Below are positions 16,970-34,397 of a stretch of 64,000 nt of DNA, piece after piece. The notes under the pieces were generated by a model that did not search any database, was not told the DNA's origin, and was given only the letters and a program-made list of their open reading frames with translations. The stretch lies in the NCBI GenBank assembly GCA_963844635.1, contig CAWJPD010000003.1, forward strand, positions 1,247,680 to 1,311,679, given 5' to 3'. Positions within the stretch are counted from its first letter, which is position 1. Each line of letters opens with the position of its first letter. The position numbers and the translations under genes are program-made. The DNA comes from an uncultured Alphaproteobacteria bacterium. GTDB lineage: Bacteria > Pseudomonadota > Alphaproteobacteria > Rhizobiales > Xanthobacteraceae.

Positions 16970-17085
16970 GGGTTCTTTCCCTTTGCAGAAAGGCTCGCCC
17001 CATCAATTTCCCACGCCGGAAATCTTTCCATTCTCACGCGTTAGCTATTCTTTATGCTTAAGAAAGTGTTGCCGCCCACAATACG

Positions 17086-17107
17086 CCGGCAGATCGATGA
17101 CTGCCGG
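17086..17107 (-). terminator. 7-bp GC hairpin (CCGGCAG/CTGCCGG) 22 nt downstream of hypB
   Basis: Read directly from the sequence. No U-tract follows, so this is tentative. Confidence 0.35.
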
Positions 17108-17128
17108 TCAGATCACCTCCGCGTCAGG

Positions 17129-18147
<1,019 letters not shown>

Positions 18148-18148
<1 letters not shown>

Positions 18149-18487
18149 CAGACGTCCTCGTCAATTTCTATGCTTTTGAGGTTGAGCCTCTTCGCCCGCG
18201 AGACGTTCAAACCGCAGCGACCCGCAACCGCAAGTCGTCAGCATGTCAGGAGTGGCGAATTCCTGGCCGCAGGCTTCGCAGCGAGCCACTCCTTCAATCT
18301 CGGTAATTGCGAGGTCGGCCGTCTCGACGCTGGTGCCGCGGGCAACTTCGGGAAAGCAGAACGCGAGCGCCTCCAGCACGACGCCCGAGAGTTTCCCGAC
18401 TTCAAGGTTGACGCGCGCGACCCGATGTCCGCGCGAAGCTTCCGCGGCTAGCTCCACGATGCTGCTGGCGATGGCGAGTTCGTGCAT
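18148..18487 (-). pseudogene. hypA: Hydrogenase nickel chaperone HypA with a frameshift about 13 codons from the 3' end (near 18184-18190)
   Basis: MHELAIASSIVE...CEACG...CGCGS. As written the ORF ends ...AGEEAQPQKHRN at 18161. Removing one base gives ...GEELNLKSIEIDEDV with a stop overlapping the hypB ATG (TGATG), the canonical HypA end. Confidence 0.8.
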
Positions 18488-18495
18488 GGCGATGC

Positions 18496-19562
18496 TCAAC
18501 AAATCCGCGGCAATTGTTCCCCGACCAGCATGTCCACGATGCGGTTGCCGCCGAACACCGTGCGCATGGTGACGCGCCCAGGCTCACCCGAGGTGACCCG
18601 CCCAATTGCGCGGGCGTCTTGTCCGAGTGGATGGGACCGCATTGCCGCAAGCGCCCCGTCCGCCCTCCCGGCGGGTACGATGGCGACGATCTTTCCTTCG
18701 TTCGCGAGATACAACGGATCGAGCCCAAAATTTCGCAGAAGCCGCGAACGCCATCCCGGATCGGCGTCGCGGCCTCCTCGATCTCGATTGCGGTCGCTGA
18801 GGCGTCGGCGATTTCGTTCAGCACGGTCGCAATGCCGCCGCGCGTCGGATCGCGGATGAAGCGGGTGTCCGGCGCCACTGCCAGCAGTTCGGCGATCAAA
18901 TTATGCAATGGTGCGCAGTCGCTGACCACGGGCGTCTCCAGCAACATGTCGCCGCGGGCGCCGAGAATGGCGGCCCCGTGATCTCCCAGCACGCCATTGA
19001 CGAGGACGACATCGCCGGCCTCAACCTCATGCGCCCCGAGATCGATGCCGGTGCGAATGGTTCCGATGCCCGTCGTGGTGATGAACATCTTGTCGCAAGC
19101 GCCTTTGTTCACGATCTTGGTATCCCCTGTCACGATCTCCACACCCGCCTCCCGCGCGGTTTGTGCCATCGAACGCGCGATGTCGCGGAGCAGATCGACC
19201 GACATTCCTTCCTCGATGATCGCCGCGCAGGAGAGATAGAGAGGGATCGCGCCGCCAACGGCGAGATCGTTCACCGTGCCGCAGACCGCAAGCTTGCCGA
19301 TGTCGCCTCCCGGAAAGATCAGCGGATCGACGACGAAGGAGTCCGTGGTGAAGGCCAGCCGGTTGCCATGGCGCGACAGCGTTGCGAAATCGATCCGCGC
19401 CTGGTCATCGAGCGGTGCGAGCAGCGGGTTGTCGAAGGCCGTAACGAAGACATCGTCGATGAGGTCCTTCATCGCCTTGCCGCCGCCGCCATGGGCCAGC
19501 GTCACGGTCGGCACATGGAGCTTCCCGCGCTGGCGTTGCGGCACGAATGGAACGACATTCAT
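18496..19562 (-). pseudogene. hypE: Hydrogenase maturation protein HypE, interrupted by a 1-nt deletion near 18721-18726
   Basis: ORF 18402-19562 reads ...VRGFCEILG then leaves the frame. ORF 18496-18714 supplies (DP)LYLANEGKIVAIVPAGRADGALAAMRSHPLG...MLVGEQLPRIC, the canonical HypE C-terminus. Confidence 0.85.
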
Positions 19563-20710
19563 GCCGCGCCTGCCCGCAATTTTGCGTCATCGCTCTGCCG
19601 CTTGATGCCGCCATATTGATAGTAGGCCGAACAAGCGCCTTCGGACGACACCATCAGCGCGCCGAGCGGCATCTCCGGGGTGCAGGCGGTGCCGAACACC
19701 TTGCACTGCCATGGTTTGATCACCCCTTTGAGCACTTCGCCGCATTGGCAGGATTTCGGGTCGGCGATCCTGGCGTTCGGCACCTCAAATTTTCGCTCGG
19801 CATCGAAGGGCGCGTATTGCGCGCGCATTCGCACACCGGAATGGTCGATCGAGCCGAGGCCACGCCATTCGAAGAATTCGCGCAACTCGTAGACTTGTGC
19901 CACGGCTTTCAAGGCAGGAAAATTGCCGGACTCCGGTACGATGCGCGCATACTGGTTTTCGATTTCACAGCGTTTCTCGGCGATCTGCTTCAGCACCATC
20001 CACACCGATTGCAGGATGTCGAGCGGCTCGAATCCGGAAATCACCATCGGTTTGTTGTAATAGCGCGCCACGAACTCATAGGGCGCAGTGCCGGTCACCA
20101 TCGAGACGTGGCCGGGGCCCAGAAAGCCGTCGAGATGCAAGTCAGGGCTATCGAGGATCGCCTTGATGGTCGGAACGATGGTGATGTGATTGCAGAACAC
20201 CGAGAAGTTCGTGACCCCCTCGCGTTCCGCGGCAAGGATGGTGAGCGCCGTCGACGGCATTGTGGTTTCGAAGCCGATGCCGAAGAAAACCACTTCGCGT
20301 GTGGGATTACGCCGCGCCAGGGCGAGTGCATCCATCGGCGAGTACACCATGCGGATGTCGGCGCCGTCGGCCTTGGCCTGCAGCAGGCTCTTGCGCGAGC
20401 CGGGCACCCGCATCGCATCGCCGAAGGTGGTGAAAATCACCTCCTTGCGCTCGGCGATCGACACGCAGTCATCCACTCGACCCATTGGCAGCACGCAGAC
20501 CGGGCAACCCGGTCCGTGCACGAGCTCGATCGATTTGGGCAGCATACCTTCGATGCCGTAGCGGAAGATCGAATGGGTATGTCCGCCGCACACCTCCATG
20601 ATCTGGATCGGCCGCTGCTCGCCCCGCTTGAGGCCGGTGGCCAGGCGTTCGATCTCGTGCACGAGGACCATCGCCTTGTCCCGGTCGCGGTACTCGTCGA
20701 TGTATTTCAT
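19559..20710 (-). CDS. hypD: Hydrogenase maturation protein HypD
   Basis: MKYIDEYRD...MEVCGGHTHSI...HGPGCPVCV...FFGIGFETT...PGHVS. ATG 20710 overlaps the upstream stop (ATGA). Confidence 0.92.
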   Translation of the reverse strand: MKYIDEYRDRDKAMVLVHEIERLATGLKRGEQRPIQIMEVCGGHTHSIFRYGIEGMLPKSIELVHGPGCPVCVLPMGRVDDCVSIAERKEVIFTTFGDAMRVPGSRKSLLQAKADGADIRMVYSPMDALALARRNPTREVVFFGIGFETTMPSTALTILAAEREGVTNFSVFCNHITIVPTIKAILDSPDLHLDGFLGPGHVSMVTGTAPYEFVARYYNKPMVISGFEPLDILQSVWMVLKQIAEKRCEIENQYARIVPESGNFPALKAVAQVYELREFFEWRGLGSIDHSGVRMRAQYAPFDAERKFEVPNARIADPKSCQCGEVLKGVIKPWQCKVFGTACTPEMPLGALMVSSEGACSAYYQYGGIKRQSDDAKLRAGAA

Positions 20711-21402
20711 GGCGCGGACTCCCGGGCGACGGCCGCGCCCCTGTCGTCGGCAAGCAAGGTGTGCACAAGGTCCCAAAGAATGTGATAGGCGGCAACGTGG
20801 CACTCCTGGATGCGATGAATCGAGGTGGTCGGCACCACGAGACAATGGTCGCAGACGCCGCTCGATTTCATCCTGCCGCCATCGCCGCCCGATAGCCCGA
20901 TGGTGACGAGACCCATTTCCTTCGCTTTGGCGAATGCCGCCATCAGGTTGGAGGAGTTGCCGCTGGTCGAGATGCCGATCAGGCCGTCGCCCGCTTTGCC
21001 CTGGGCAATGATCTGGCGGACAAAGACGTGTTCGAAGCCGACATCGTTGCCCACCGCCGAAATCATCGCGAGGTCGGCAACGAGATTGATGGCCGCGAGC
21101 GCGGGCCGTCCGGCGGTGATCGGATGCACGAATTCGACGGCAACGTGGGAAGCATCACAACTCGAGCCGCCATTGCCCATCGAGAACATGCGGCCGCCGC
21201 GCCGGTACACTTCGGCGAGCGCCTTCGCAGCGGCAACCAGAATGCCAGCTTGATCGCCGAAGAAGCGCGCATTGGTCTCGCGCGAATCGCGCGCTTTTTC
21301 CTCGACAGAGTGAAGCAATGCCTTGCCCAGTGCCATCGGGTCCTGCGTTCGTCGGTGCAGGAACGGGTAAAGCTCGGCGAGGGGATTGTTGTCGCCATTC
21401 AT
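20707..21402 (-). CDS. SIS-domain protein (GmhA / phosphoheptose-isomerase-like) embedded in the hyp operon
   Basis: ...GGRMFSMGNGGSSCDASHVAVEF...GLIGISTSGNSSNLMAAFAKAKEMGLVTIGLSGGDGG... Four-nucleotide overlaps with hypC upstream and hypD downstream. Confidence 0.8.
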   Translation of the reverse strand: MNGDNNPLAELYPFLHRRTQDPMALGKALLHSVEEKARDSRETNARFFGDQAGILVAAAKALAEVYRRGGRMFSMGNGGSSCDASHVAVEFVHPITAGRPALAAINLVADLAMISAVGNDVGFEHVFVRQIIAQGKAGDGLIGISTSGNSSNLMAAFAKAKEMGLVTIGLSGGDGGRMKSSGVCDHCLVVPTTSIHRIQECHVAAYHILWDLVHTLLADDRGAAVARESAP

Positions 21403-21710
21403 GGCGATCGCTCCTCCTCGAACGCCAGATTCGGCAGGGCGCCCGAGCGCATGCTCTCGAGCTCGGCCTGCGCTTCGCCGAGTTCCTGCAGGATTTTCAA
21501 CGTTTCGGCCGCCTGCTCGGCATCGATCCGGCTCATCGCAAAGCCGACATGCACGAGAACCCAATCTCCAAGGCACTTTTCCGGCGGATGATCGTCGTCG
21601 ACGATGCAGCTGATGTTGATCTGGCGACGTACACCGCAGACGTCCACCATCGCCACCATGTTTTCCGCATCGTTTATTGCGATGATGCAGCCTGGAATGC
21701 CAAGGCACAT
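21399..21710 (-). CDS. hypC: Hydrogenase assembly chaperone HypC/HupF family
   Basis: N-terminal MCLGIPG signature; 103 aa. Confidence 0.9.
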   Translation of the reverse strand: MCLGIPGCIIAINDAENMVAMVDVCGVRRQINISCIVDDDHPPEKCLGDWVLVHVGFAMSRIDAEQAAETLKILQELGEAQAELESMRSGALPNLAFEEERSP

Positions 21711-24110
21711 GGCGGGCCCTTTCTGTTGATCGGATTTTCAGCCTGGATCAGTTGTGCCGCCGCGACGGCCGCCTGGCCTAACGAAAGCCCGCCATCATTG
21801 GCGGGAACCTCGCTGTGACTGAGCACAGCGAAACCGCCCTCCTGAAAGCGGCCGGCGACGCCCTCCAACAGCGTGCGATTCTGGAAACAGCCGCCGGTAA
21901 GGGCGACGGTGTCGAACAAGCGCACGCCCGGCGTCGCCTCGGTGAGGCGCTTGACAACCGCGACGATCGCCTCTGTTAACGCGGCATGAAAGGCTTGAGC
22001 CATGATGGGCGACGGCATGCCGCGGTCCAGATCGCTCAGCAGCGCCGGCCACATCGGTGTCGGATCGATTTCCCACCTTCGGTCGGGGCATTGCGCGACA
22101 TCCATGACGTAGGCGGCATCGCATGCTTCCGCGCCCCGCTCGGCGAGCGTCTCCAGGCGCGCCGCCGCCTCACCCTCGTAGCCCTGCCGATCAGGGCAAA
22201 GGGCGAGCGCCGCGGCAACGGCATCGAACAGGCGACCGCAGGACGAGGTCTGCGGTGAATTGAGCTGCCCTGCAAGCATCGCGTCGAGCGTGGCGATCGG
22301 CTTGGAACCCAAGTAGGCGTAAAGCTCCGACCCGCACGCTTGCAATGCAGTCGCGGAAGAGCCGAAAGCAGCAATGAGCTGGGCATAGAGATTGCGCCAA
22401 GGTTCGCGCATCGCCGCCGCTCCTCCCGGCAGCGCGACGGGCTTCAGATTGGCAACGCGGCGATAGCCGAAATAATCCGCGAGCAGAAACTCGCCGCCCC
22501 AGATCGTCCCATCGTCCCCGAGACCGGCGCCGTCGAGCACGATCCCGAGCACCGGACCGGCGTCGATCGGCCGGCCACTCTCGGCAAGGCAGGCGGCGAC
22601 GTGAGCGTGATGGTGTTGGACGGAAAGTATTGGGAGGTCACGGCGCTGCGCATCGGCACGGCCCCATTTCGTCGACAAATATTCGGGATGGCGATCGACA
22701 GCGATGGCCGTGGGCGCGTGGTCGAACATCTGCGCATAGAGTCTCAGGCTGCGGCGATACGCATCCAAGGTCGGTGTATTTTCGAGATCGCCCTGGTGCT
22801 GCGAAAGGATCGCGTTCCCATCCTTGATCAGGCAGAACGTGGCCTTCGAGCTCTCCGCCGGCGGCGACAATCTCTGGCGCGTTCTCAAAGCCGGCAGGGA
22901 GAGGGATCGGCACCGGCGCATAACCGCGCGCGCGCCGCAGTATCCGCGGCTTGCCGGCCATGACGCGCAGCACCGAATCGTCGAGCCGGTTGGCGATCTC
23001 GCGATCGTGTATCAGTGCATAAGCCGCAATCCCCGAGAGTTTGGCCCGCGCCTCGTCGTCGTCGATCAGGGGCGGCTCCTGCGAAATGTTGCCGCTCGTC
23101 ATGACGAGTGGTGCCTCGCTGTCCTCTGCCAAAAGCCGGTGCAGCGGGGTGGTTGGCAGCATGAAACCCAGCATATCGAGTCCCGGCGCGATGGCGGCGG
23201 GCAGCTGGCGCGGTCCGTTGGCGCGCATCAGAACGATCGGACCTTGCACGCCCGCGAGTTCGCGCTCCTCCGCCGAGGTCACGGTGCAATAGCGGCGGAT
23301 CATCGCGGTATCGCGGGCCATCAGCGCGAACGGCTTGGCATCGCGGCGTTTCAGGCGGCGCAAACGGCCAACCGTTTCTGCATTGGCCGCGTCACAGGCA
23401 AGGTGATAGCCGCCCAGCGCTTTGACGGCGACAATCTCGCCCACCGCAATCAGCGACGCCGCCAGCTTCACATCATCAAGGCCCGGCGCTCGCTTTAACT
23501 CCCGGCCGTCGAGAGGGACCAGCACCGCTGCGGGCCCGCAGGCCTGGCAGGCAATCGGCTCGGCGTGGAAACGCCGGTCGCGCGGATCGCGATACTCCGT
23601 TGCGCAAGCCTTGCAGCAGGGAAACCGTGCCATCGTCGTGCTGGACCGGTCATATGGCACTCCCGTCACGATGGTCAGGCGCGGGCCGCAGCGGGTGCAA
23701 TTGATAAAGGGGTAACGATAGCGCCGGTCGGCGGGATCGAGCAATTCGCGAGCGCAGGCCGCACAGATGGCCGCATCCGGGGCGATCTGGGTGTGGCTTG
23801 GGCCGGGCACGCTGTCGAGAATGCGGAATTCTGCGGGTAATGATCCGGAATAGGCCCGCCGCTCGATGCGCTCGATGTGGGCCAGCGGGGGCAGGGCGCT
23901 CCTGATGCGATCGAAAAAGGCGCCGACGCGCTCGCCATCGTCATCGACTCGCAGGAGCACGCCATCGCCGTCGTTCAAGACCTCGCCGCCGAGGCCAAGG
24001 TCGCGCGCAACACGCCACGCCGTCGGCCGGAAGCCGACGCCCTGCACCCGGCCGCGGATGCGAAACTCAAGCGCCTTTCTCCCGCTGGGAGCGGCGGCCA
24101 GCGTCTTCAT
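21674..24110 (-). pseudogene. hypF: Carbamoyltransferase HypF, interrupted by a 1-nt insertion near 22845-22848
   Basis: ORF 22638-24110 contains the acylphosphatase domain (RIRGRVQGVGFRP), zinc fingers (CAAC..., CTRCGPR, CKAC, CQACGP) and a YrdC-like domain, up to ...AAGGEL. ORF 21674-22921 continues KATFCLIKDGNAILSQHQGDLEN...VQHHHAH... Confidence 0.88.
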
Positions 24111-24124
24111 GCGCCCGCGGGCTC

Positions 24125-24307
24125 CTACATGCTGCTGATCTTGAGATAGCGATAGAGGTCCTTGGCATTCATGATGACCAGCGCCAGCGCCACAAGTCCG
24201 ATGATGGTGCCGAAGCCGGGCCCGGAACCGCCGCCGTGCCGACCATGACGCCTCAGGTCTCTCCTGTCGTCGGACCGAATCATGTCTCTGCTGTCAGAAT
24301 AGCTCAT
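24125..24307 (-). CDS. 60-aa protein with a single C-terminal TM helix, between the protease gene and hypF (possibly the DUF6893-type family; recalled, unverified)
   Basis: Strong RBS AAGGAAGGAG 6 nt upstream of ATG 24307. MSYSDSRDMIRSDDRRDLRRHGRHGGGSGPGFGTIIGLVALALVIMNAKDLYRYLKISSM. Confidence 0.5.
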   Translation of the reverse strand: MSYSDSRDMIRSDDRRDLRRHGRHGGGSGPGFGTIIGLVALALVIMNAKDLYRYLKISSM

Positions 24308-24851
24308 GTTGAACTCCTTCCTTGCGAGGGAAATTTGATGCAGAGCCAATATCTCTGTTGCCGTGTTTGTCTTCGTTGGAAAGTTCCCGTACCAACTGGT
24401 CGACCAGCTCGCAGGCAGGGTCGATCGCTGCTGCGACCGGTTCGCTCAAGCCCATGATCCCTTCATCGCCGCCGAGCGTTAACGGTTCGCAGGCGACCAG
24501 CAGAGCGCGTTGTTGCTTGCCACCGAGCGACGCGGCGAGGCGCAGCACCTTTGCGGGGTCGAGCGCGTGCGGTTCAAGCAGGTCCGGCGCGGTTTCCGCC
24601 ATGATCTCCGGCGCGGGGATTTCGATCAGCGATACGGTGCCGGGCGGCTCGCCGCGTTGCGCGGCATCGATCAGGATGACGTCCCCGGCATGATCGATCA
24701 GCGCATAGACGAGATCGATCCCGCGAATGCCGAAATCGACGATCTTGACTTGTTGAGGCCAGCGGCGCTGCAACAGCCGTCGCGCAGTCTCGACCCCGAA
24801 AGCGTCATCGCCATCGAAGATGTTGCCGATGCCAGCGACCAGAATGGTCAC
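24294..24851 (-). CDS. [NiFe]-hydrogenase maturation endopeptidase (HupD/HyaD family)
   Basis: MTILVAGIGNIFDGDDAFGVE...DFGIRGIDL...VILIDA... Confidence 0.88.
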   Translation of the reverse strand: MTILVAGIGNIFDGDDAFGVETARRLLQRRWPQQVKIVDFGIRGIDLVYALIDHAGDVILIDAAQRGEPPGTVSLIEIPAPEIMAETAPDLLEPHALDPAKVLRLAASLGGKQQRALLVACEPLTLGGDEGIMGLSEPVAAAIDPACELVDQLVRELSNEDKHGNRDIGSASNFPRKEGVQHELF

Positions 24852-26212
24852 GGCTCACCCCCGATTCCGAGCGGCTCGACTTCGTCCTGCGCAAAATAGA
24901 ACCGATGACCCGGGAAACCGGCCGCTCCCAGGTCCCGGCCGGGATCGTCCACCAGCGTGACGGCGACATGCAGGCGATCATCAAAATCGCGCTCGATTCG
25001 CTCGATCACGGCGATCTGATCTTTCAGCACAAGATCCATGATGTCGCCCCGCTCGCGCGGACGCAAGCGGACGCGGCGGCCCGGCGCCAATGCGGACGCC
25101 GTGTCGAGCAGTGTGGCAAGCGAACCTCGCTCGCGAGGGGCGAGATCACCATCGACTGTCTCAAGGCGAGAAGAAACGGACGTGCCCCGGAAGGCGCCGT
25201 GCAGATGGGCGAAATCCTCGGGGGTCATTGCCTGGGTGCGCTCCAGCAAGGCGCGTGCGCGGGCATCGACGCTCGCCATCTCGCGCTTCTCCGCATCGGT
25301 CATGGCGAGGATGCGAAGCGTCAAGATTTCGTCGATCTCCGTTCCATCGAACAGGTCACCGCGGCTTTCCGGCGCCACCGCCGGATAGTCGTAGAGGATG
25401 ATGGGGGACGACAACATCGTGTTGCGCTCGCCCGCCGCACCGACCAGCACCGGCCAGGTCCCGCGGTTTTCACATTGCGCCGCCGCCTCGCGACATCCTT
25501 CGGATGGTTCGAGCAGGGAGCAGAACGCGCCTTGCTGTACTCCCAGAATGGTGTGCGTGGACGCAAAGGCGCGACGTTGCGCCTTGTTGCGATCACCGCG
25601 CTCATCCGCCGATAGCCGAGAGACGTTTTCGATGATGACGCCGACCCGGTACAAATCACCGCCAAGATCGTCGGCGGTGACTGTGATCGCGCCCTCGATG
25701 GGCAGTGTCGCTCGGATGAAGGCTCCGACGACCCCCTGCCGCGCGTTGCGGATCGGATCGAACTGGCGTTGCCCATCGAAGCAGAACGCCACCGTCTCCG
25801 ATCCCCCCGCAAGCTGGCCCAAAGTGAGGGTGGCGATTGCCACTTCCCGTTCGATCGCTTCTTCCCAGGCGAGATATAGCTGCCCGTCAATTTCCAATCG
25901 CGGAGTTGCAACAAGCTTGGCCTCGTGCTGGGGGGAAAACGCCGCAACCGGTTGCGGCAGCTTCGCGACCTCGCGAATGCACAAATGCAGAAAACGCACG
26001 CGAAACTCGACTGTCGTCCCCGAACTTCCTTCGACAAGAACCTGGGTCTGCATCCTCGCGGCGTCGCCATAGGCCGTCCCGAAAGCCTCAGGGAAAACAT
26101 TGCCAAACGTCCAGCGCTGCCGGTTCTTGATCGAAGATGCGCGATAAGGATAGAGGATGTAGCCCTCGTAAAGCATGGCGTTCGCAATGTCGCGGATGCG
26201 ATCGAGGTTCAT
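24848..26212 (-). CDS. Conserved hydrogenase-cluster protein of unknown function (454 aa)
   Basis: GC3-rich ORF with 4-nt overlaps at both ends. No recognisable catalytic motif. Confidence 0.7.
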   Translation of the reverse strand: MNLDRIRDIANAMLYEGYILYPYRASSIKNRQRWTFGNVFPEAFGTAYGDAARMQTQVLVEGSSGTTVEFRVRFLHLCIREVAKLPQPVAAFSPQHEAKLVATPRLEIDGQLYLAWEEAIEREVAIATLTLGQLAGGSETVAFCFDGQRQFDPIRNARQGVVGAFIRATLPIEGAITVTADDLGGDLYRVGVIIENVSRLSADERGDRNKAQRRAFASTHTILGVQQGAFCSLLEPSEGCREAAAQCENRGTWPVLVGAAGERNTMLSSPIILYDYPAVAPESRGDLFDGTEIDEILTLRILAMTDAEKREMASVDARARALLERTQAMTPEDFAHLHGAFRGTSVSSRLETVDGDLAPRERGSLATLLDTASALAPGRRVRLRPRERGDIMDLVLKDQIAVIERIERDFDDRLHVAVTLVDDPGRDLGAAGFPGHRFYFAQDEVEPLGIGGEP

Positions 26213-26859
26213 GATTGGACACTCGTCAACTGCGATGCCAAGAGCTCGCTCAGGGCGCGCTCGAAGGTTGGCAGCCCCCGTTCGCGCTTGTAGCGATAGA
26301 GTTGGTCAAAGGCATCGCGCCGCAAGCACAACCACGCGCTCTGCGGATAATATTCATCCATCATGCGCCGCCACGTTGCCACGGGAAGGCGGAACGTGCT
26401 TTCCTTGCTCCAGGGAATCTGCACGATCTGCAAGGCGCCATCTTCATCGCGATAGAAGATCGAGCCGCTGAACAGGACGTTCAGAGGGACGTCGCCATCC
26501 TCGACGCCATGGAAAAATTTGGTTGCCGCGACATTGAAGTCGTACGTGCAGGGCACCATCAGGCCGACGGTCGTAGACTGATCGAAGGCCGGTACCAGCA
26601 CGCTGGCATGGGTCCAGAGAAAGCTGCGCAGCGTATCGCCCCAGCGCTGCGGCTCGCCGAACAACTCGCACAGCCGCTCCTGCTCCACGGCGACGTAACT
26701 GCGCCGGGTCGGCTCGATGCGGATCTGTGCATTGAGCATGACGTTCAAGATTGCGACCTCAGGGCTGCGGCTCACCACCCGCAGCGCGAACCGTAACAGC
26801 GGCGAAACCGCAAAGCGTTCGACCTCCACCGCCCCCACGCTGAAGTCGAGCTCAGGCAT
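26209..26859 (-). CDS. Conserved hydrogenase-cluster protein of unknown function (216 aa; DUF6084-like, recalled)
   Basis: Overlaps the upstream gene by 8 nt and the downstream gene by 4 nt. MPELDFSVGAVEVERFAVSPLLRF... Confidence 0.7.
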   Translation of the reverse strand: MPELDFSVGAVEVERFAVSPLLRFALRVVSRSPEVAILNVMLNAQIRIEPTRRSYVAVEQERLCELFGEPQRWGDTLRSFLWTHASVLVPAFDQSTTVGLMVPCTYDFNVAATKFFHGVEDGDVPLNVLFSGSIFYRDEDGALQIVQIPWSKESTFRLPVATWRRMMDEYYPQSAWLCLRRDAFDQLYRYKRERGLPTFERALSELLASQLTSVQS

Positions 26860-27478
26860 GCATCACGCCTCCGGTGACGCCCGCTTCGACATTCAAGGCT
26901 CGGAAGAACTCCGCGATCGCATTCCAGGCCTCGGTGCCGCCGGAAAGGCCGTGCCAATGGGTTCGGATAACGCCGATAAGCGCATAGCATCGATCGATGG
27001 AAACCCGATAATACTCGCGCGCACCGTGAGTTCGATTGACGAGCAGGGCTTCGACGTCCGGTGCAAGATCGGAAATCCCCGGATTCTCGGCGACGAGTTG
27101 CATCCAGAGTTCGGGATCGAGCTGCGATTCCGTCGCACCTGCGGGACTTGGATAAATCGCGACGGGCTGCTTTATGCGCGTGCTGGAATAAATGAAGGCA
27201 AGTCCGATCGGAATTTGCAAGGCGTTCCATTGCGGATCGGTCAGGTGAAAATCGGGCAGCAACTGCGTGCGCGGTTCCACCAGGCAAAAGCGTTCGGAAC
27301 TGCCAAGAGAAAACGCGCAGCCTTGGCAGGCGCAATGAAACTGAGCGGTTGCGCGCTCGAAAAGATGCGGGTGCTGTGAAGGAATTGTCGCCGAACAGAA
27401 ATCGCAGTATTCCTCTATCCGTCGCACGAGGAACCGCCGCAGCCGCGAAACCCAGTTACGTGGTGATGAGGCTTCCAT
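26852..27478 (-). CDS. Conserved hydrogenase-cluster protein with an N-terminal Cys cluster (208 aa; DUF5947-like, recalled)
   Basis: The internal ATG at 27478 gives MEASSPRNW...EEYCDFCSATIPSQHPHLFERATAQFHCACQGCAFS, a C-x2-C...C-x-C-x2-C pattern. Confidence 0.65.
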   Translation of the reverse strand: MEASSPRNWVSRLRRFLVRRIEEYCDFCSATIPSQHPHLFERATAQFHCACQGCAFSLGSSERFCLVEPRTQLLPDFHLTDPQWNALQIPIGLAFIYSSTRIKQPVAIYPSPAGATESQLDPELWMQLVAENPGISDLAPDVEALLVNRTHGAREYYRVSIDRCYALIGVIRTHWHGLSGGTEAWNAIAEFFRALNVEAGVTGGVMHA

Positions 27479-27509
27479 GACGCTGCCTTTCGGACCACCG
27501 GGGGGCGCG

Positions 27510-28061
27510 CTACGATGCGAGGGCCGTGTCGTCAACGCGATTGGCGCTTCCGATTCGCGCGGAACTGTTTTCAAACTCGACAATGATCTCGTCGAGATCA
27601 GGGGCCGCATCGAGCAGTGTTCGCTCAACCTCGGACCGAAGTTGCTCAGGCTCTTCGCCGGTGGCTGTGCACTGGACCTGCACCCGGACGGATGCATTGC
27701 CGGTGCTTATCACATTCACGGCAAGGCCGCGTGATTGCCATTGCGGCTCCCTCTTCGCGAGCGCCGAGTGAATCCGCGTCTTCGCGTCAACAGGATGAAG
27801 GCCGTGAAGCAAGAGCAGCGCGTTCACGTGCGGGTCGGCAACCATGCGTCCGCTGAGCGCGCCTCCTGTGTCGGTTGCCGCGACGATGGCAAAAACGCGC
27901 GCGAACGCGAGGCCGTGGAGGTCGAGAAGCAATTCGAACAACTCACGGGCACTCTCACGAGCCTTCGCGTCGGAAACGGTGTCCAGCGCGGTAATCAGCT
28001 TTTCCAGTCGGGCCAGCGACGAATCGAGTGCTGTCTTATCGTCGTGGCGGACACTGCTCAT
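27510..28061 (-). CDS. NifU-C-terminal-like protein lacking the CxxC motif, directly coupled to hhyL
   Basis: ATG 28061 overlaps the hhyL stop (ATGA). The C-terminal ...VRVQVQCTATGEEPEQLRSEVERTLLDAAPDLDEIIVEF parallels the Nfu fold. Only one Cys is present. Confidence 0.6.
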   Translation of the reverse strand: MSSVRHDDKTALDSSLARLEKLITALDTVSDAKARESARELFELLLDLHGLAFARVFAIVAATDTGGALSGRMVADPHVNALLLLHGLHPVDAKTRIHSALAKREPQWQSRGLAVNVISTGNASVRVQVQCTATGEEPEQLRSEVERTLLDAAPDLDEIIVEFENSSARIGSANRVDDTALAS

Positions 28062-32616: not shown

Positions 32617-34397
32617 GTGACCGCGAAATTCGTCGCCGGAATGCTGTCGGGATCGCTGCTTGCGGCAACCGCGCTGACACCGGCCGGCGCCGCCGACATG
32701 ACGACCGACCGCGCGCTCAATCCGCAACGCGAGCCGCAGAACTGGATTCTGCACCATGGCAATTATCAGGGTCACCGATTTTCGCTACTGAATGAGATCA
32801 ACACCGGCACGGCGAAGAACTTGAGGCTCGCCTTCACGGTCGGTCTCGGCGGATTGCAGAGTGGCGGGCGCTACGCCCATGGCAACCTCGAAGCTACCCC
32901 GCTCGTCGAGGACGGCATCATGTACGTGCCGGATGGCTGGGGCGCGGTGTACGCGATCGATCTCACATCCGGCAAGAAGGGCGTGATCAAGTGGAAGGTG
33001 GATCCCGCCATAGACCGCGCTTGGGCCGGCGATGTTGCATGCTGCGGCGTGAACAATCGCGGCGTCGCGCTGTGGAAAGACAAGGTGATCTCGATCTCGC
33101 TCGACGGACGCATGTTCGCGATCAACAAAGCGACCGGTGAGGTCGCCTGGGAGCGCAAGATCGCCGATCCGGCGCTCGGCGAAACTTTGACGATGGCGCC
33201 GTTGATCGTCCGCGACCTCGCGATCGTGGGCCCCGCCGGCGGCGAGTTCGGCATCCGCGGCTTCATCGAGGCGACCGATCTCAATACCGGCAAACAGGCC
33301 TGGCGCACCTACACCATTCCGGGCGCCGGCGAGCCGGGCAATGAAACCTGGAAGGGCGGTCACGAACAGTGGCAGCATGGCGGCGGCTCGACCTGGGAGA
33401 CCGCGACCTACGATGCCGAGATCCGACACGATCTACCAGGGTATCGGCAATGCCGGTCCGGACTTCGACCCCGAATATCGACCGGGCGACAACAAATGGG
33501 CCGCGAGCGTCCTCGCCCTCAACCCGAACAATGGCGAGATCAAATGGGGCTTCCAGTACACCCCGAACGACCCTTATGATTTCGACGAGATTTCCGAGCA
33601 CCCGATCATCAACGCCAAGGTCAATGGCGAAGACCGCAAGCTCGTCGTGCATGCGGCGCGCAACGGCTTTTTCTATGCACTCGATCGCATCAACGGTTCG
33701 TTCGTTGCAGGTAAGCAGTATGTCGACGAACTGAACTGGACGCCGGGCCTCGATCCGAAGACGGGCAAGCCGATAAACTATGATCCCAATCGCGATGTGC
33801 AGGTCTACAATCCGGGCAGCCACGGCTCGCGCGGTCGGCCACTGAGCGACCGGCTGTGCCCGTCGATCACCGGGGGCAAGAACTGGCAGCCGAGCGCCTA
33901 CAATCCGCGGCTCGGGCTGATCTACATCCCCTCGATCGAGGGCTGTGGCCGGATCGAGACCAACGAGCAGGTCGACTTTTTCGACCAGGGCGGCACTTTG
34001 AAGCCGCGCGAACGCTACACTGGTGGCCCGTTCAAAGCGCCTGAGCGCCGCCTTTACGGGGCGCTGAAGGCTGTGGACCCGACTACCGGCGACACCAAGG
34101 CCAACCTGAAGCTCGACTATCCGAACTATGCGGGTGCGCTTGCGACCGCCGGCGACCTCGTTTTCCTCGGTCAAGTCGATGGCACGTTCGCCGCTTATGA
34201 TGCGCGAACGCTGCAGGAGCTGTGGAGCTTCAATGCCGGCACCGGCATCAATGCCCCGCCGGTCGCGTATTGCGGTGAACGGCAAGGAGTATGTCGCGGT
34301 GTTGGTTGGATCGCGACAGCCGAACAACGTGATCCCGTTCGCGCCGGAGCTTAAGAACACATCGCCCGCCTCCATGCTCTACGTGTTCAGCCTTTGA
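32617..34397 (+). pseudogene. PQQ-dependent dehydrogenase, methanol/ethanol family, tandem copy 1; two 1-nt insertions (about 33421 and about 34272)
   Basis: GTG 32617 with RBS AGGGAGGA. Three ORF-track pieces (32617-33579, 33341-34354, 34128-34397) join into a full-length homolog of copy 3. Vicinal VACCGV and PYDFDE motifs are present. Confidence 0.85.

Follow-up and report, generated by a model that had tools for sequence, protein, structure and literature searches.

Group 1h [NiFe] hydrogenases account for a large share of the soil sink for atmospheric H2, and their accessory genes are the obvious missing pieces in two questions, namely the assembly of these enzymes in air and the destination of their electrons. 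In the current study, we analyzed four such genes (g1 to g4), located on the minus strand between hhyL and hupD, which encode the large subunit and the maturation endopeptidase, in a 64,000-nt stretch of DNA from an uncultured alphaproteobacterium of the Xanthobacteraceae (contig CAWJPD010000003.1, positions 1,247,680 to 1,311,679; hereafter the window). The four genes form an already known accessory module of group 1h hydrogenases. Their counterparts in Cupriavidus necator were reported as "four ORFs of unknown function, PHG066-69" (PMC4377017; ORF, open reading frame), the structural operon of Thermomicrobium was reported to include hhaABC as "conserved hypothetical proteins" (PMC6776052), and the product of the first gene of the block has been named HhyE (PMC6883350). 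In Mycobacterium smegmatis, the orthologous MSMEG_2718 (HhyE) to MSMEG_2714 lie between hhyL and the gene of an M52 peptidase (PMC5445863), and the same block is present in Methylocystis parvus and on a Mycobacterium intracellulare plasmid. An earlier note on this DNA, made from its letters alone, had regarded the four proteins as uncharacterised. This holds for their mechanism, since no mechanistic characterization of HhaA-C-type proteins was found in the searchable literature, but not for the block, which had already been described (PMC4377017, PMC6883350, PMC6776052).

HhyE is the only member of the block to have been investigated. Deletion of hhyE leaves M. smegmatis without Hhy activity, and zymograms with the artificial acceptor nitroblue tetrazolium are inactive as well; Islam et al. 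(2019) considered a maturation or scaffold role of HhyE to be compatible with these data (PMC6883350). Purified Huc consists of three subunits, does not contain HucE, and reduces menaquinone analogues itself (PMC10017518), so this homologue of HhyE is not an obligatory relay. Comparison of the locus with these systems leads us to favor, with about as much doubt as confidence, a reading in which g1-g4 are an assembly/maturation scaffold that works with HupD and is not part of the electron path. Among the roles that the earlier note had put forward (electron relay, membrane tethering, oxygen protection or assembly), assembly is the best supported. We favor it because the cofactor-free parts of the module are the ones retained, because an SH3-like domain alternates between g4 and HupD, because of the published hhyE and Huc data, and because the module evolves at a HupD-like rate. 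The genes themselves will be no surprise to a specialist; the comparisons make the question of their role more sharply testable.

Linkage of the module to group 1h operons

The enzyme of the window is a group 1h hydrogenase. HhyL contains both group 1h signature motifs, TSRICGICGDNH and SFDPCLPCGVH (motif definitions: PMC5364354), with a 25-aa C-terminal extension after the DPCLPCGVH motif. It is 81% identical to HofG of C. necator and 86% identical to HhyL of M. parvus, and it shares one 90% cluster with HhyL of Methylocystis bryophila; HhyS shares 78-82% identity with its counterparts in C. necator and Methylocystis. The earlier note's four minus-strand ORFs between hhyL and the protease gene were found exactly where it had placed them, and they are orthologues of PHG066, PHG067, PHG068, and PHG069, with tblastn identities of 38, 45, 53, and 42%, respectively, over nearly the full length. 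Each has thousands of full-length homologues in conserved synteny, so g1-g4 are real genes and not chance ORFs. As had been claimed, none of the four matches a Hyp family, and neither does any match a HupD family, in Pfam or NCBIfam.

The linkage of the block to group 1h operons is near absolute. Among 72,556 plasmid records, the 13 with a group 1h HhyL (at ≥70% identity) are exactly the 13 with g2 and g4, a few kb apart, and a single distant [NiFe] large subunit (25% identity) is accompanied by neither. In 80 metagenomic loci found with the DUF5947 profile that g2 matches, counting a neighbor only where the contig leaves room for it, g3 is beside DUF5947 in 69/69 testable loci, g4 in 52/52, HupD in 35/35, HhyS in 31/31, and HhyL in 43/45; the exceptions include rearrangements inside the same cluster (e.g., L059 and L091). 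The earlier note had raised the possibility that the four proteins occur mostly away from hydrogenase genes, which is at odds with neighbor counts that range from 43/45 to 69/69. The order hhyS-hhyL-g1-g2-g3-g4-hupD is likewise preserved, as far as each contig extends, in 23 loci of Alphaproteobacteria, Acidobacteriota, and Chloroflexota found via g3, and the gene order of the window recurs in loci L001-L025. In Streptantibioticus cattleyicolor (NC_016113.1), a g4 homologue (567284-568615) and a DUF5947 gene (562687-563196) flank hhyL (563800-565572) on opposite sides; the gene order of the block is thus not universal, though its co-location is. On the M. intracellulare plasmid (L027, 13133-18525), a nuoA-G operon for NADH-quinone oxidoreductase directly follows the group 1h cluster.

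The module had also been thought specific to high-affinity hydrogenases. Its restriction to group 1h stands (13/13 plasmids), but affinity is not what it follows: the low-affinity group 1h enzyme of C. necator possesses the block (PMC10017518), and the high-affinity enzyme of Methylacidiphilum fumariolicum lacks every one of g1-g4 (PMC7174314, PMC6688271). The block is therefore tied to the 1h lineage and not to high affinity.

Within the block, hhyL and g1 overlap by ATGA (28058-28061), g2 and g3 by 8 nt (26852-26859), and g3 and g4 by ATGA (26209-26212), as had been read from the sequence before. The g4/hupD junction (24848-24851) is GTGA, its start codon being GTG rather than ATG, and g1 and g2 do not overlap and are separated by a gap of 31 nt. 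Scans for promoters and terminators inside the block found nothing above chance. In a census of 107 loci, the g2/g3 overlap was kept in 95/99 and the g3/g4 overlap in 76/85, whereas hhyL and g1 overlap in just 17/69 and g4 and hupD in 17/64. Because only the g2/g3 and g3/g4 overlaps are conserved, the conserved coupling is within the module and not between module and enzyme, and the stoichiometric co-expression with the enzyme previously deduced from the overlaps does not follow; they show coupling only. Median identities to the window are 34-53% for g1-g4, 50% for HupD, and 74-80% for HhyS and HhyL. Judged by these values, the module evolves like a maturation factor, at the pace of HupD, and not like an enzyme subunit.

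Domain architecture of the four proteins

An alignment of g1 with 23 orthologues resolved two parts, a helical N-domain, where conservation within the HhyE family is highest, and an Nfu-type (NifU C-terminal) domain. The family profile matches solved Nfu domains (2z51_A, E=1.7e-15, positions 91-161) but g1 itself has no Pfam or NCBIfam match, and its Nfu domain is therefore degenerate. This bears out the earlier description of a NifU-C-like fold that has lost its CxxC motif and has one Cys. The single Cys of g1, C131, is not conserved, and the segment aligned to the Nfu CxxC is VQVQCTATGEEP, in which QCTATGEE replaces the motif; the counterpart in Chloroflexota HhyE is GSCHGCPSS, and GSCxGCPSS is kept in Chloroflexota and some Acidobacteriota. 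None of the 120 nearest homologues of g1 has the CxxC, 69 of them have no Cys at all, and the motif is gone in all proteobacterial HhyE members, including those of the window, C. necator (PHG066), and Methylocystis. With these ligands lost, g1 in this lineage cannot bind an Fe-S cluster via the canonical site. Some HhyE proteins add a Rieske-like C-terminal domain with two CxxC (Pfam NifU 4e-23, Rieske 2e-5), which we saw in L009, L013, L020, and L021; g1, at 183 aa, ends after the Nfu domain and has no such extension. Across 74 HhyE-family sequences only D31, H89, P90, R96, E146, A153, and P154 are invariant. The conserved function of g1 must lie largely in the helical domain, whose family profile matched no natural protein in the PDB. 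This domain has two LLxLHGL(x)P helix-loop units akin to the repeats of transcription activator-like (TAL) effectors. Homology to TAL effectors (27786-28061; phmmer against the PDB, summed E to 3e-12) was rejected, as each repeat alone is non-significant, and the resemblance is probably a convergence of helical repeats.

The assignments of g2 to DUF5947 and g3 to DUF6084, which had been suggested before, proved correct in hidden Markov model searches (g2, 210 bits, profile positions 2-174 of 177; g3, 284 bits, positions 1-209 of 213; cut-off 25 bits for both). The C-x2-C...C-x-C-x2-C cluster noticed earlier in g2 comprises C25, C28, C49, C51, and C54; H36, H38, and the distal C164 (104/105), which had gone unmentioned, are invariant too. 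The AlphaFold2 (AF2) model of g2 has a predicted local distance difference test (pLDDT) score of 85 and a predicted template modeling (pTM) score of 0.81, and a Foldseek search with it against the PDB and BFVD gave nothing better than E=0.09. In this model, a CxxC knuckle, a beta-hairpin, and a CxxC at the start of a helix (C25, C28, C51, C54) fit the layout of a treble-clef finger, and matches of the N-terminus to RLP24/L24e and FCS-type fingers were below threshold. C25/C28/C51/C54 are thus probably a treble-clef finger with a putative structural Cys4 zinc site, and H36, H38, C49, and C164 may make up a second, His2Cys2 site. No Fe-S family was matched by g2. The start of g2 at 27478, giving 208 aa, is backed by homologues of ~209 aa; the public record of this genome has only a 142-aa version of the protein (P0122; 99% identity, 68% coverage) from which the invariant N-terminal Cys/His cluster is cut off.

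In a library of 1.8 billion proteins, DUF6084 matches 1487 representatives at E≤1e-3, mostly stand-alone and ~215 aa long, and C104 of g3 is invariant in 85 aligned sequences. Neither single-sequence nor family-profile searches of g2, g3, and g4 against the PDB gave a significant match. Paralogy among these three proteins was considered and rejected, as profile-profile comparisons show none.

The fourth protein, g4, matches no Pfam or NCBIfam model but has at least 7993 homologues. The AF2 model of g4 (pLDDT 77) has an N-terminal helix, an invariant LYEGYxLYPYR motif, a beta-rich core, four helices, a linker, and a C-terminal barrel. The core is homologous to the N-terminal half of the DISARM helicase DrmA, which has been described as "a structural chassis" that contacts DrmB and was without known homologues (PMC9142583). 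The likeness is found both by profile, with the PADLOC DrmA model PDLC02573 matching at positions 81-296 of 1018 (E=3e-8) and 58/62 g4-family members hitting it (best E=8.9e-11), and by structure, with DrmA (7s9v_A) as the top and only significant Foldseek match of the core in the PDB (E=9.3e-6). However, g4 is not itself a DISARM DrmA helicase: the superfamily 2 helicase core (RecA1/RecA2) is absent, a DrmB/DUF1998 partner is missing, and its neighbors are hydrogenase genes rather than those of a defence island. The global template modeling (TM) score between g4 and DrmA is low (0.21), and the g4 sequence profile misses the solved Serratia DrmA. The C-terminal SH3-like barrel superposes on PetP, Tudor, and KOW-type (eS4 KOW) domains (TMt 0.7-0.76).

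The position of this barrel varies among operons. In many genomes g4 is split exactly at its disordered linker, with the SH3-like domain in another frame. Of 67 loci, 31 encode the domain as a gene of its own, 19 have it joined to the g4 core, as does the window, and 15 have it joined to the N-terminus of HupD. The SH3-like::HupD fusions (L003, 11703-12542; L004, 10553-11455; L070; L101; and 11 further loci) belong to Acidobacteriota-type operons and are clean ORFs of ~280 aa with Pfam HycI at residues 132-263 and an intact RILVAGIGNIF protease start. They probably explain the label "hydrogenase maturation protease" that some g4 homologues carry in Joint Genome Institute (JGI) annotation. By this domain-fusion link, g4 is tied to the protease step. 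Two other candidate fusions, P0078 (g4::HycI in one ORF) and L005 (g3::g4), could be frameshift artefacts of overlapping genes and were not used, and the "fusion" of L024 (Dictyobacter kobayashii) looks degraded and was not counted as clean.

The other parts of the module are also found joined. A g2::g3 fusion is predicted in P0474/L109, and the DUF6084 representatives P0391 and P0507 are HhyE helical N-domains fused to DUF6084. The latter arrangement recurs in a minimal operon found in several samples (L108; L110, 3240-8921; L111), which reads hhyS-hhyL-(HhyE N-domain::DUF6084, 314-334 aa)-g4-HycI-HypA with 4-nt overlaps throughout. Neither DUF5947 nor an Nfu domain is present on these contigs, and their HhyL has the 1h motifs, making it a bona fide 1h enzyme. 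In the sequences compared, four parts without a cofactor motif are always retained (HhyE N-domain, DUF6084, g4 core, and SH3-like domain), and the potentially redox-bearing parts, the Nfu CxxC and DUF5947, have been lost in whole lineages. Four findings are apparently new in the searchable literature, and we regard them as leads, not proofs: HhyE has lost its ligands clade-wide, g4 has a DrmA-like core, the SH3-like domain occurs in three genomic states, and some operons lack DUF5947.

Candidate roles of the module

Under the assembly/maturation reading, g3, g4, and the helical N-domain of g1 would form a soluble cytoplasmic complex that binds the large subunit before its processing, or else the newly made HhySL pair. 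HupD, recruited or positioned by way of the SH3-like domain of g4, would then remove the 25-residue C-terminal extension of HhyL, and g2 could be an accessory metal-binding partner that delivers or checks a metal or cluster. The DrmA-like, scaffold-type core of g4, the conserved g2-g3-g4 overlaps, the g2::g3 and g1 N-domain::g3 fusions, the place of the module immediately upstream of hupD and the hyp genes, and its lack of transmembrane segments also back this reading. It is conceivable to go further, although we would sooner doubt than expect it, and to see in the HhyE N-domain, DUF6084, and the DrmA-like/SH3 protein an unrecognised 1h maturation machine that presents the precursor to HupD, in DUF5947 a two-site metallochaperone of new fold, and in the chassis an ancestry shared with DrmA. 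In either form, the label "conserved hypotheticals" gives way to a specific, testable assembly model, which also serves as a warning against heterologous expression of HhySL without g1-g4.

Several points weigh against a maturation scaffold. Canonical operons have a cytochrome b at the place between large subunit and protease. The eight invariant Cys/His of g2 could equally be a redox center. For the C. necator enzyme, PHG067 has been put forward as electron acceptor, as cited in PMC6883350; HhyE runs together with HhySL in native gels (PMC6883350), and the M. smegmatis genes lie in the structural, not the maturation, operon. Moreover, Methylacidiphilum has an active high-affinity 1h enzyme with two membrane proteins in place of the module (PMC7174314, PMC6688271). 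Maturation of a 1h enzyme can thus proceed without the module, and the presence of membrane proteins in its stead could point to a role in coupling.

The first four of these points speak at the same time for the main rival, an electron relay, in which DUF5947, with or without HhyE, would take electrons from the distal cluster of HhyS towards the quinone pool and g3 and g4 would be adaptors. Group 1h operons have no cytochrome b (PMC6883350), the conserved Cys/His of g2 sit in a confidently predicted fold without a PDB match, and actinobacterial and Chloroflexota HhyE retain both the Nfu CxxC and the Rieske-like C-terminal domain. On the other hand, bona fide 1h operons exist without DUF5947, all Fe-S ligands of HhyE are lost throughout the proteobacterial clade, the window included, and the four-Cys part of the g2 cluster fits a structural treble-clef zinc finger. 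The hhyE deletion is not rescued by an artificial acceptor (PMC6883350), Huc reduces menaquinone without HucE (PMC10017518), and the enzyme evolves far more slowly than the module. The relay suggested in the earlier note is thus excluded for g1 in this lineage by the loss of its Cys ligands and weakened, though still conceivable, for g2 by the operons that do without it; overall, we consider it unlikely.

A structural or tethering role, in which g1-g4 would be permanent parts of the holoenzyme that organize the HhySL oligomer or its peripheral attachment to the membrane, as HucM does in Huc, is less probable again. It would suit the scaffold-type core and SH3-like adaptor domain of g4 and the overlapping genes, which favor co-production, and Hhy is membrane-associated without a membrane anchor in M. 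smegmatis and M. fumariolicum (PMC7174314, bioRxiv 10.1101/769216). Yet the M. fumariolicum enzyme is membrane-associated without the module, and a permanent subunit is hard to square with an SH3-like domain that elsewhere is fused to HupD, which acts transiently. The membrane tethering envisaged before finds no support in g1-g4, which have no obvious amphipathic anchor and no convincing transmembrane segment (maximum 19-residue hydropathy 1.84, in a charged conserved helix of g1, and ≤1.36 in the others). Least probable of all is that the module protects or repairs the enzyme or its cofactors in air, e.g., by re-inserting or re-reducing damaged clusters, rather than serving first assembly: both the synthesis and the use of group 1h enzymes take place in air, the membrane-bound hydrogenase of Ralstonia eutropha requires extra factors such as a rubredoxin-like protein for aerobic maturation (as cited in PMC6883350), and cluster handling would suit both the g2 metal site and a g1 of Nfu ancestry, but the Nfu CxxC is dispensable in a whole clade, hhyE deletion loses activity totally and not conditionally, and the aerobic M. 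fumariolicum enzyme manages without the module.

Locus layout and comparison with known systems

The module sits directly upstream of hupD and the hyp genes (Table 1). The start of hhyS was refined to an ATG with AAGGGGAAGG just before it.

Table 1. Features of the group 1h hydrogenase locus, with positions in the window.
Feature	Positions	Strand	Basis
hhyS, group 1h [NiFe] hydrogenase small subunit, 360 aa	29908-30990	-	Pfam Oxidored_q6 and NiFe_hyd_SSU_C
hhyL, group 1h large subunit, 604 aa	28058-29872	-	Pfam NiFeSe_Hases; L1 and L2 signature motifs
g1, HhyE family, orthologue of PHG066, without Fe-S ligands, 183 aa, ATG start	27510-28061	-	38% identity to PHG066
g1 N-terminal helical domain, residues 1-92; motifs LLDLHG and LLLLHGLHP	27786-28061	-	Most conserved part of HhyE family
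g1 degenerate Nfu (NifU C-terminal) domain, residues 93-160	27582-27785	-	Family profile vs. 2z51_A
g2, DUF5947 protein, orthologue of PHG067, 208 aa	26852-27478	-	PF19372, E=2.7e-62
g2 Cys/His cluster, residues 25-54 (C25, C28, H36, H38, C49, C51, C54)	27317-27406	-	Conserved in 105/105
g3, DUF6084 protein, orthologue of PHG068, 216 aa	26209-26859	-	PF19562, E=8e-85
g4, multidomain protein, orthologue of PHG069, 454 aa	24848-26212	-	42% identity to PHG069
g4 beta-rich core, residues 56-281, homologous to N-terminal "chassis" of DISARM helicase DrmA	25370-26047	-	pLDDT >90
g4 disordered linker, residues 343-372	25097-25186	-	pLDDT 31-34
g4 C-terminal SH3-like beta-barrel, residues 378-447	24872-25081	-	Foldseek
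hupD, [NiFe] hydrogenase maturation endopeptidase, 185 aa, GTG start	24294-24851	-	PF01750, E=4.8e-14; TIGR00072, E=7.6e-29
Downstream maturation genes as a block	17129-24110	-	Pfam matches and translations
hypF (frameshifted)	21674-24110	-	
hypC	21399-21710	-	
SIS-domain gene	20707-21396	-	
hypD	19559-20845	-	
hypE (frameshifted)	18496-19562	-	
hypA	18161-18487	-	
hypB	17129-18148	-	

The reading frames of g1-g4 and hhySL are intact, in contrast to those of hypF and hypE. A break at 22838-22853 divides hypF between two overlapping ORFs (490 and 415 aa), one frame encoding the acylphosphatase, Zn-finger, and YrdC domains and another the Kae1-like domains; a 1-nt shift is needed to obtain the correct reading, AAGGELKATFCLIKDG, and the split is either an assembly indel or a pseudogene. 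The frame of hypE is broken at EILG|LDPLY (18722-18737), where the G-run TTTTGGGCTCG is apparently one G short, and its true C-terminus, EQLPRIC*, lies in the other frame and ends at 18496-18498. Both frameshifts look like assembly indels, and their occurrence in two hyp genes <5 kb apart suggests long-read homopolymer errors. Elsewhere in the window, a 337-aa ORF (33341-34354, plus strand) matches only positions 240-335 of a 595-position model of the PQQ dehydrogenase propeller; it looks like a piece of a larger gene and is possibly another assembly frameshift. A 465-aa plus-strand ORF at 17054-18451, of odd composition (MGMGMRVGMLVGMRV) and without a family match, was rejected as a gene since it is the antisense of the His-rich hypB.

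The hyp genes of group 1h operons enclose a SIS-domain (GmhA-like) gene in the window, in C. necator (L001, 15202-15891), and in Methylocystis (L002, 2195-2884), and in M. smegmatis gmhA adjoins hypF (PMC5445863). The gene order on the C. necator H16 megaplasmid pHG1 (hofK-hofG-NifU-like-DUF5947-DUF6084-hypothetical-protease-hypF-hypC-SIS-hypD-hypE-hypA-hypB) is that of the window. PHG066 resembles g1 in having no CxxC, and PHG069 resembles g4 in having the SH3-like domain fused. The two loci differ in that PHG066 scores on Pfam NifU (E=7e-12) and g1 does not, and in that all C. necator junctions overlap or abut, whereas g1 and g2 of the window are 31 nt apart. In M. smegmatis, HhyE (MSMEG_2718) has a homologous helical N-domain and Nfu domain and the same place after hhyL. 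However, actinobacterial and Chloroflexota HhyE are ~300 aa long and have the Nfu CxxC and the Rieske-like C-terminal domain with two CxxC, and g1 has neither. The five genes between hhyL and the peptidase gene in M. smegmatis (PMC5445863) are consistent with a split g4.

The cytochrome b (HoxZ/HyaC) of classical group 1 operons occupies the same position as the module, downstream of the large subunit. Unlike it and HucM, g1-g4 have no transmembrane helices, no haem or quinone motifs, and no family match to these proteins. Group 1h small subunits are not known to have a twin-arginine translocation (Tat) signal peptide, so that Tat-related chaperoning would not apply to them. A parallel may be offered by HoxL, O, Q, R, T, and V of R. 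eutropha and HyaE/HyaF of Escherichia coli, which are likewise enzyme-specific, non-Hyp helpers encoded beside the structural genes and the endopeptidase. The four proteins have no sequence or family relationship to these accessory proteins, and the analogy that we propose is thus functional only; several of the Hox and Hya proteins are needed for the assembly of their hydrogenases in air.

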